Source of the DNA: Pseudomonas phage phi9_PA9
Length of the DNA: 64,000 nucleotides
Direction: 5' to 3' (one strand)
Sequence record: PQ093904.1
The notes beneath the pieces were generated by a model that was not told where the DNA came from, did not search any database, and saw only the letters and a list, made by a program, of their open reading frames with translations. The translations under genes and the position numbers were made by a program. Below are positions 7,332 through 8,240 of this stretch, piece after piece; position 1 is the first letter of the stretch; every line of letters begins with the position of its first letter.

Positions 7332-8240
7332 ATGCTTAAGGTAAAATCATTACTCACTGGCCATATTCTTCGAGCTACCTATGATTGGTTTCTTGAAAAT
7401 AACTTCAGAGATATTCTAATTGTAGCACATACTCAATTAGTACCTGATTTATCTGAGGTAGCTCTAAAGCATGCGAAAGAAGATCACACTATCACTTTCA
7501 ATATCCATCCACGCTGTGCAAAGAATTTTTATATCAGTGACGAATATATCTCTTTCAATGTAACAGTAAATGGAGTTGGGGTCAGTATTAAACTTCCTCT
7601 TTATGCAGTATTGGGTGTAGTTACACCTATTGATGATAATTCTAACGCATTCTTTGAAATGCCGCTAGTAGATAGATATCTCAATGCAGATACTATTCGT
7701 GCAACATTAGAAGGAACTGTTAATAATGTAGTTGACAAAAACCCAGTATTAACTACTGTAGGTAATGTCACTGAGGTTAATTTTAAAAATAAAGCCGATA
7801 CCACTAATGGTAAGTTAGTTGTAAGGAATACATCTGAGAATGAGCATGATCAGATGATTGAAAACGCCATTAACAGAGTAACTGAATTTAGTAATCCAGA
7901 ATTAGATGCACATATTAGAGTAGCGGTAACTGCAATTAAACAGAATGCACCAGAATTAATTATGGATTGGTGTGAACGGGTTATTAATTGTACACGTAAT
8001 GAAAACTATCAGGATAACATCAATGTACTTATGATGGAACTCCTCAGTTACCCTATTTCAAATGTGATTAGTGAATCAACTGTTGACTCAGGTGATGATA
8101 CATCTAATTCATTTGACAATGATGTAAATAAGATGGTTGAGGATTTCAATAATTCTTCCAATTCGCAGGTCATTATTAATAAACCTTCTCGTCCTACTGG
8201 TCCACCAAAACTCACTGTTATTAAAGGTGGTAAGAAATGA
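7332..8240 (+). CDS. SspB-like ClpX adaptor homologue (SspB substrate-binding domain, long acidic linker, ClpX-binding-like C-terminal tail)
   Basis: N-terminal 110 aa align with E. coli SspB (ILRATYDWFLEN / YLLRAFYEWLLDN; ITFNIHPRCAKNF..DEYISFN..G / IVLNIAPRAVGNL..DEVRFNARFGG; LPLYAVLG...FEMP / VPLAAVLA...FEPE); the C-terminus PPKLTVIKGGKK resembles the SspB XB motif RPALRVVK. Confidence 0.65.
   Translation: MLKVKSLLTGHILRATYDWFLENNFRDILIVAHTQLVPDLSEVALKHAKEDHTITFNIHPRCAKNFYISDEYISFNVTVNGVGVSIKLPLYAVLGVVTPIDDNSNAFFEMPLVDRYLNADTIRATLEGTVNNVVDKNPVLTTVGNVTEVNFKNKADTTNGKLVVRNTSENEHDQMIENAINRVTEFSNPELDAHIRVAVTAIKQNAPELIMDWCERVINCTRNENYQDNINVLMMELLSYPISNVISESTVDSGDDTSNSFDNDVNKMVEDFNNSSNSQVIINKPSRPTGPPKLTVIKGGKK

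Follow-up and report, generated by a model that had tools for sequence, protein, structure and literature searches.

Does a jumbo phage of Pseudomonas aeruginosa encode an adaptor of its own for the host protease ClpXP? The question is raised by one gene in a stretch of 64,000 nucleotides from Pseudomonas phage phi9_PA9 (PQ093904.1; this whole stretch is referred to below as the window). An initial annotation, made from the sequence alone, had read the gene as encoding an SspB-like ClpX adaptor with a ClpX-binding-type tail. The window belongs to the phiKZ group of P. aeruginosa jumbo phages (megablast, 43 records, ~98% identity), and the gene is the orthologue of PHIKZ232, here called gp232. 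Its product is 97.7-98.7% identical over its full length in 43 out of 43 phiKZ-like genomes, and AAAGGT is found 9 nt upstream of the ATG. Based on the sequence and on a structural model, we regard the predicted SspB fold of the N-terminal domain as certain. Judging from the tail, gp232 probably binds ClpX. The larger proposal, that gp232 is an early, non-virion, cytoplasmic adaptor of the SspB family that docks on host ClpX to deliver cargo, is in our judgement evenly balanced.

The SspB identification of gp232 as such is already known from the literature, GenBank and PHROGs, and the statement in the initial annotation that no phage homologue of SspB had been described was wrong. The protein gp18 of phage pf16 was treated as a phage SspB in 2017 (PMC5587285). 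Prichard et al. (2023) described SspB as an accessory gene of nucleus-forming phages and aligned PhiKZ gp232 in their Fig. S4J (PMC10299810). In the databases, PhiPA3 gp270 is noted in GenBank as 'similar to stringent starvation protein B', PHROG 8945 is labelled 'SspB-like', the gp232 gene is annotated as SspB in phages Churi and Bobae, and one fragment among the homologues (P0003) is named 'ClpXP protease specificity-enhancing factor SspB' by NCBI.

The N-terminal domain of gp232 has an SspB-type fold

When gp232 was compared with the sequences of PDB entries using phmmer, residues 11-110 matched E. coli SspB (1ox9, 1yfn and 8et3_Y; E = 1.4e-8), and H. influenzae SspB was matched with an E-value of about 3e-8. 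The motif-by-motif alignment with SspB that had been proposed for this region was borne out, and the quoted motifs are in register. The NCBIfam models for 'ClpXP protease specificity-enhancing factor' match gp232 with E-values down to 1e-12, and precomputed matches to Pfam PF04386 are present for two homologues (P0002 and P0003). A filter-free phmmer search of 1.84 billion representative sequences retrieved 92 proteins at E<=1e-3. With the exception of three close phage relatives or fragments, all of these are SspB-sized and align only with residues ~1-160 of gp232.

The predicted structure gives the same picture. In the AlphaFold2 (AF2) model, residues 6-127 have a predicted local distance difference test score (pLDDT) of about 75-80. 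The 13 best Foldseek matches of the gp232 model in the PDB are all SspB (E-values from 5e-7 to 5e-6), so that the outcome named in the initial annotation as refuting its reading, a predicted structure without the SspB fold, did not occur. Compared with these SspB structures, the template modelling (TM) score is 0.70-0.77 when normalised by the target, and the root-mean-square deviation is about 3 Å. SspB forms homodimers through its N-terminal helix, and gp232 has a predicted helix there (residues 8-22) that bears the conserved pattern R-A-x-Y-x-W-x-x-x-N. In an alignment of 59 bacterial SspB domains, 29 positions are at least 70% conserved, and gp232 keeps 15 of them, including R14, A15, Y17, W19, N23, N57, P60, F75, G81 and P89.

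The C-terminus carries a ClpX-docking-type peptide

Bacterial SspB ends in a peptide that binds the N-domain of ClpX (XB peptide). Of the 87 distant representatives, 56 end in the canonical SspB tail, with the consensus ...G-R-P-x-L-[RKT]-V-[VI]-K-COOH. We built a position-specific scoring matrix (PSSM) from 56 bacterial SspB C-terminal 9-mers. The gp232 peptide GPPKLTVIK (residues 290-298) scores 21.7 bits with this matrix, compared with a median of 21.0 bits for true SspB tails. Across every open stretch of the window (26,276 positions) no other site reaches 21.7 bits; the next best has 12.7 bits, and none of 20,000 shuffles attained the gp232 score. The claim of a ClpX-binding-type tail thus holds. 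It is strengthened by the tails of Pseudomonas SspBs and by the retention of the tail in distant phage homologues.

The Pseudomonas comparison covered 80 other species of the Pseudomonas group, including P. delhiensis and P. panipatensis; since P. aeruginosa is not among these loci, we infer the identity of its SspB tail from these relatives. In 79 of the 80 species SspB ends in RPSLKVVK, preceded by PRP[ST]G. The XB-type peptide of gp232 matches PRP[ST]GRPSLKVVK at 7-8 of 12 positions, and the tail S-RPTG-P-P-K-L-T-V-I-K is identical to that of P. panipatensis SspB at 8 of 12. Among phage homologues that are only about 25% identical to gp232, the tail is kept in PhiPA3 gp270 (KGKPTLTLIKGGKK), PA1C (KGKPKLTVIKGGKK) and Serratia phage Moabite (RPNPFSVIKGGKE), and also in Psa21, RVTF4, D6 and Phabio. 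An LL[DE]F motif upstream of the tail is kept in the homologues from Pseudomonas phages, Phabio excepted.

The last 38 residues are the best-conserved part of gp232. Relative to the metagenomic homologue P0002, identity is 92% in this segment, 74% in the substrate-binding domain, 54% in the connector that follows the domain and 43% in the helical bundle between the connector and the final linker. When the C-terminal half of gp232 is compared with its counterparts in PA1C and PhiPA3, only the last 38-58 residues align (E = 7e-8 and 1e-7). The 38-residue segment is likewise all that this half has in common with the homologues of Psa21, D6, RVTF4, Phabio and Serratia phage Moabite.

The XB peptide of SspB is therefore found in gp232, with one deviation, the GGKK that follows it. 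Among 13 phage homologues G299 and G300 are invariant and K301 is nearly invariant. The GGK(K) extension is not seen in the 56 of 87 representatives with canonical SspB tails, and RAY gp039 and AH06 gp038 are without it, ending in ...TLTVVK and ...SLSIVK. Constructs in which XB is followed by GGS and a second peptide bind ClpX or its zinc-binding domain with a dissociation constant of 35-80 nM, and the XB peptide is reported to work whatever its position in the polypeptide (PMC12373786). The extension is thus compatible with docking on ClpX, because the constructs with residues after XB still bind.

Some of the SspB representatives also have 5-20 residues after XB, in some cases with a terminal basic motif of the F-x-K-K type. 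Homologues that continue beyond the XB peptide are P0048, P0032, P0037, P0064 and P0086, and P0048 carries two tandem XB copies (KPKLTVVQRPKLTVVRNDPETQ).

A peptide shared with unrelated viral proteins

A DNA pattern for [LF]TVIKGGK was found at 50 sites in IMG/VR (loci L094-L143, for example L103, L094, L099, L104, L136, L133, L095, L141, L137 and L122), and all 50 are in frame. For 41 sites the distance to a stop codon is at most 14 residues, and for 40 of these it is at most 7; the remaining 9 sites are at the N-terminus of one family. The proteins form 13 sequence clusters, none with an SspB domain, and the peptide ends at least 10 unrelated viral protein families, 1-7 residues from the stop. 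Pfam identifies an IS1-type transposase, an AAA_25 RepA-like ATPase and a DUF927 primase/helicase-like protein among them; the rest are small ORFans. In about half of the clusters with the peptide at the C-terminus a proline stands two residues before the leucine, as in SspB tails. With a scrambled pattern as control, 13 sites were obtained, none of which fell in the last 20 residues of an open reading frame (ORF) of at least 60 amino acids (aa). Given the terminal bias in unrelated families and its absence from the scrambled control, [LF]TVIKGGK looks like a portable terminal module.

A bolder extension of this finding, which we consider doubtful, is that XB-GGK is a portable ClpX-recruitment tag of mobile elements and that gp232 is a dedicated adaptor feeding host proteins to ClpXP. 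If this were true, the tag would tether unrelated viral proteins to ClpX for remodelling or turnover, for which MuA and lambda O are ClpX-linked precedents. gp232 would feed, for example, defence or regulatory proteins to cytoplasmic ClpXP while the phage genome is protected in the nucleus.

Domain architecture and neighbouring genes

The features of the locus are collected in Table 1. Between the substrate-binding domain and the tail, the initial annotation had placed a long acidic linker rich in Ser, Asn and Asp. The composition is as described, since residues 111-289 have a net charge of -12 and consist of S, N, D or T at 39% of positions. The idea of a single plain linker did not survive, as AF2 predicts a four-helix bundle within the region. 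Modelled separately, this bundle has a pLDDT of about 88. It is seen only in the phiKZ group and in P0002, which is 61% identical to gp232. On the C-terminal side of the bundle, residues 239-286 as a whole are acidic and predicted to be disordered (pLDDT below 50). The flexible linker of SspB is thus present in gp232 as residues 128-168 and 239-286, both of low-complexity composition, and the deviation from SspB is the folded bundle between them.

Two further matches in residues 115-198 were rejected, one to FUR (E = 0.004) and one to staphylococcal SSL7 (NCBIfam E = 2.6e-5; PDB search E = 0.005). The region is mostly predicted to be disordered, and the scores are far under the cut-offs.

Table 1 Features of the gp232 locus, with positions in the window
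Feature	Position	Strand	Residues	Basis
gp232 ORF, orthologue of PHIKZ232	7332..8240	+	302 aa plus stop, ATG start	ORF list, genome comparison
SspB-type substrate-binding domain	7347..7712	+	6-127	phmmer, Foldseek, AF2 pLDDT, conserved positions
N/T-rich connector, predicted disordered	7713..7835	+	128-168	pLDDT below 50, composition
Predicted four-helix bundle, specific to the phiKZ lineage	7836..8045	+	169-238	AF2
Acidic S/N/D-rich linker, predicted disordered	8046..8123	+	239-264	pLDDT below 50, composition
Conserved C-terminal module, begins VNKMVEDF	8124..8237	+	265-302	identity to P0002, PA1C and PhiPA3 alignments
XB-type (ClpX N-domain-binding-type) peptide RPTGPPKLTVIK	8190..8225	+	287-298	PSSM, Pseudomonas SspB tail
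GGKK extension	8226..8237	+	299-302	conservation in phage homologues
Terminator-like hairpin ending the preceding transcription unit	6576..6597	+		nine-pair stem, GAGCTATTTAGCTC, then TTTATTG
phiKZ early-type promoter-like element, T-rich tract then TATATTAC	6600..6632	+		context similarity, published description

Downstream of gp232, an intact ORF of 85 aa on the + strand (8237-8494) overlaps the gp232 stop codon (ATGA). The same stretch is annotated as two ORFs in the phiKZ RefSeq record, PHIKZ232.1 (23 aa) and PHIKZ232.2 (54 aa), and as a single 85-aa protein in Churi. The ORFs adjoining gp232 have no Pfam matches and match only PHROGs of 'unknown function', and are thus ORFans.

In three relatives the SspB-like gene lies two genes upstream of a gene for a BCS1-like AAA+ ATPase: Psa21 (L085:4449-5813), D6 (L087:4355-5734) and RVTF4 (L086:4409-5785), the BCS1-like assignment (Pfam BCS1_N plus AAA) being confirmed for Psa21 only. 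The window has a BCS1-like homologue as well, PHIKZ286 (38794-40320, 508 aa), about 31 kb downstream of gp232. A link between gp232 and PHIKZ261 by way of the BCS1-like ATPase was rejected, because the BCS1-like gene is PHIKZ286.

gp232 is probably expressed early and its product is cytoplasmic

Upstream of gp232, a terminator-like hairpin, reported on the - strand by the scan and palindromic on the + strand, is followed by a promoter-like element. In this element TATATTAC occupies 6625-6632, and its upstream context ttgcattaaattttttttgaaatc is nearly identical at 15868 and 22603, both of which come after hairpins. The early promoters of phiKZ have been described as an extended -10 element with a T-rich element upstream (PMC8244752). 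The element before gp232 fits this description, and we refer to it as early-type promoter-like. The next strong + strand terminator after gp232 is at 12308-12325, so gp232 is probably part of an early operon that extends from PHIKZ230.2 through the thymidylate synthase gene. Early expression of gp232 is thus supported, as the initial annotation had assumed in placing it in an early region, with the timing read from the promoter motif only.

Elements with TATATTAC recur in the window at 6600-6632, 15843-15875 and 22578-22610, and also at 15436, 18939, 25288 and 45984. Two types of context can be distinguished, '...attaaatttt(t/a)tttga(a/g)at(c/a)TATATTAC' and '...ttttttgtattHaaa...a(a/c)agYTATATTAC', and they look like sub-classes of phiKZ early-type promoters. 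Most of the TATATTAC elements come after a GC-rich hairpin.

As listed by Fossati et al. (2023), PHIKZ232 was found in infected cells and enriched in the shell preparation, and was not among the proteins of virions (PMC10449902). In the same study six proteins were tagged with mNeonGreen, and most of the fusions, that of PHIKZ232 among them, gave a diffuse signal outside the phage nucleus. The homologue RAY gp039 is likewise cytoplasmic when fused to GFP (PMC10299810). A cytoplasmic location counts in favour of a role with ClpXP, because host ClpXP would be there.

Is gp232 an adaptor, a blocker or a partner of something else?

In the mechanism that we propose, gp232 would carry a host-like ClpX-docking peptide on a flexible leash. 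The tail would bind the zinc-binding N-domain of host ClpX, and the SspB-like domain, possibly aided by the four-helix bundle, would hold a cargo protein. The cargo would thereby be concentrated at the ClpX pore and be degraded by ClpXP. The cargo could be proteins with an ssrA tag, or else some protein of the host or of the phage. That gp232 acts as an adaptor rather than as a blocker is a tentative call, which we place slightly short of even.

A number of points weigh against the adaptor proposal. Efficient delivery by SspB requires dimerisation, and an efficient gp232 adaptor would presumably have to dimerise too. The family models are matched below their curated thresholds: the NCBIfam scores are 34-48 bits where the cut-offs are 135-250, and the match to PF04386 that had been anticipated is indeed found (E = 4e-5), but at 24.1 bits it falls below the 27-bit cut-off. 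Because of these scores we consider gp232 a divergent member of the SspB family and not an equivalog. Of the 29 conserved SspB positions 14 are altered, including the A-R-F of 'ARFGG', which makes binding of the ssrA tag by gp232 uncertain. At the other end of the protein, the XB-type peptide stops 4 residues before the C-terminus, unlike in bacterial SspBs. The conserved module is larger than a simple XB peptide, and another or an additional partner may therefore exist. A literature search found no paper that tests the function of gp232, its binding to ClpX or a stimulation of degradation, or that deals with its tail or its helical insert. No link between gp232 and ClpX is readable in the size-exclusion chromatography-mass spectrometry tables of Fossati et al., in which both proteins are listed (PMC10449902).

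The main rival is that gp232 acts as a blocker or decoy, occupying ClpX N-domains or sequestering ssrA-type tags. This would halt adaptor-dependent and N-domain-dependent host proteolysis, so that phage proteins are protected or host regulation is disturbed. Such an effect has parallels. Free XB peptide is an inhibitor both of delivery by SspB and of the breakdown of substrates that depend on the N-domain, MqsA for instance (PMC8808172), and competitive inhibition was proposed for the pf16 phage SspB by its authors (PMC5587285). The conservation pattern also fits, the tail being the best-conserved part and the cargo domain having drifted. A blocker would need the tail alone, but every homologue has preserved the SspB fold at roughly 25% identity, and N57, G81 and P89 are invariant or nearly so among the homologues. 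We consider it unlikely that gp232 is a blocker.

A further reading is that gp232 has turned its tail and its SspB-like domain to a partner that is not ClpX. This could be a chaperone or some other hub of the host, or an AAA+ protein of the phage such as the BCS1-like ATPase. The 38-residue conserved module has an extra [LV][LE][DE]F motif as well as an invariant GG, the latter missing from bacterial SspBs, and the identical terminal peptide is present on unrelated viral proteins. A BCS1-like gene is close to the SspB-like gene in Psa21, D6 and RVTF4 and is also encoded by phiKZ, but in phiKZ the two genes are 31 kb apart. Moreover, the gp232 peptide fits the XB consensus of SspB as well as real tails do, including the P at -2, and it resembles the host SspB tail, while in the RAY and AH06 homologues nothing follows ...TLTVVK and ...SLSIVK. 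On balance a different partner seems quite improbable.

Still less probable, in our view, is that gp232 duplicates host SspB, bringing ssrA-tagged truncated proteins and perhaps an anti-sigma fragment of the RseA/MucA type to ClpXP and thereby raising clearance capacity. gp232 does retain more of the conserved SspB positions than other phage homologues. Against this, about half of those positions are altered, an additional folded domain is inserted, and host SspB is already present, as it is listed in the proteome of phiKZ-infected cells (PMC10449902). Finally, the sub-threshold Pfam and NCBIfam scores might point to a decaying relic or a functionless chance match, which we find barely credible given the near-identity of the full-length protein in 43 phage genomes, the clear fold match, the statistically unique tail and the detection of the protein in infected cells.

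Comparison with known systems

As an SspB-family protein, gp232 shares with bacterial SspB (E. coli; Pseudomonas PA4427-type) the fold of the substrate-binding domain, a flexible acidic region and a C-terminal G-x-P-x-L-x-V-[VI]-K of the type that docks on the zinc-binding N-domain of ClpX. It differs from bacterial SspB in its low identity (about 25%, with about half of the conserved positions altered), in the bundle within the leash and in the GGKK after the docking peptide. Its gene does not adjoin sspA, and is phage-encoded and probably early-expressed.

RAY gp039, AH06 gp038, PhiPA3 gp270 and 201phi2-1 gp347 belong to the same family as gp232 and are accessory (non-core) genes (PMC10299810). 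For RAY gp039-GFP and gp232-mNeonGreen the location is the same, the cytoplasm. The RAY and AH06 proteins are short, with a plain ...LTVVK or ...LSIVK end, whereas the branch in Pseudomonas and Serratia phages adds GGK(K). The middle regions of the jumbo-phage SspB-like proteins are unrelated between lineages. Like gp232, pf16 gp18 is an SspB of a Pseudomonas phage, and a role in modulating the ClpXP/RseA biology of the host has been discussed for it (PMC5587285). Its authors describe a high similarity to P. putida SspB, and this suggests that it was captured recently. The gp232 lineage, in contrast, is old and divergent and has an architecture of its own.

Engineered proteins offer another comparison. 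The CLIPPERs (PMC12373786) and the FKBP12-XB split adaptor cited there indicate that XB plus a binding module is enough to recruit ClpXP. As engineered systems, they show that the mechanism proposed for gp232 is feasible, not that gp232 uses such a mechanism.

SPO1 gp53, which acts on ClpCP, resembles gp232 in being a phage protein that plugs into a host AAA+ protease. The phage-encoded ClpS (Iyer et al. 2021, PMC7824862) corresponds to the concept proposed here, in which the phage supplies an adaptor and a Clp protease of the host is thereby redirected. Unlike gp232, phage ClpS and SPO1 gp53 have ClpAP or ClpCP as partner, another fold and another mode of docking.

Implications for jumbo phage biology

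Nucleus-forming jumbo phages such as phiKZ are candidates for therapy that evade DNA-targeting defences, and far less is understood of how they deal with the cytoplasm of the host. An adaptor with which the phage redirects ClpXP would open a direct way into this problem, since whatever it delivers would point to the proteins, of host or phage origin, that the phage needs to have removed. In Pseudomonas, the tail of gp232 could also be of use in targeted protein degradation, as an anchor of natural origin, and the recurrence of its terminal peptide on many unrelated viral proteins is a new lead.
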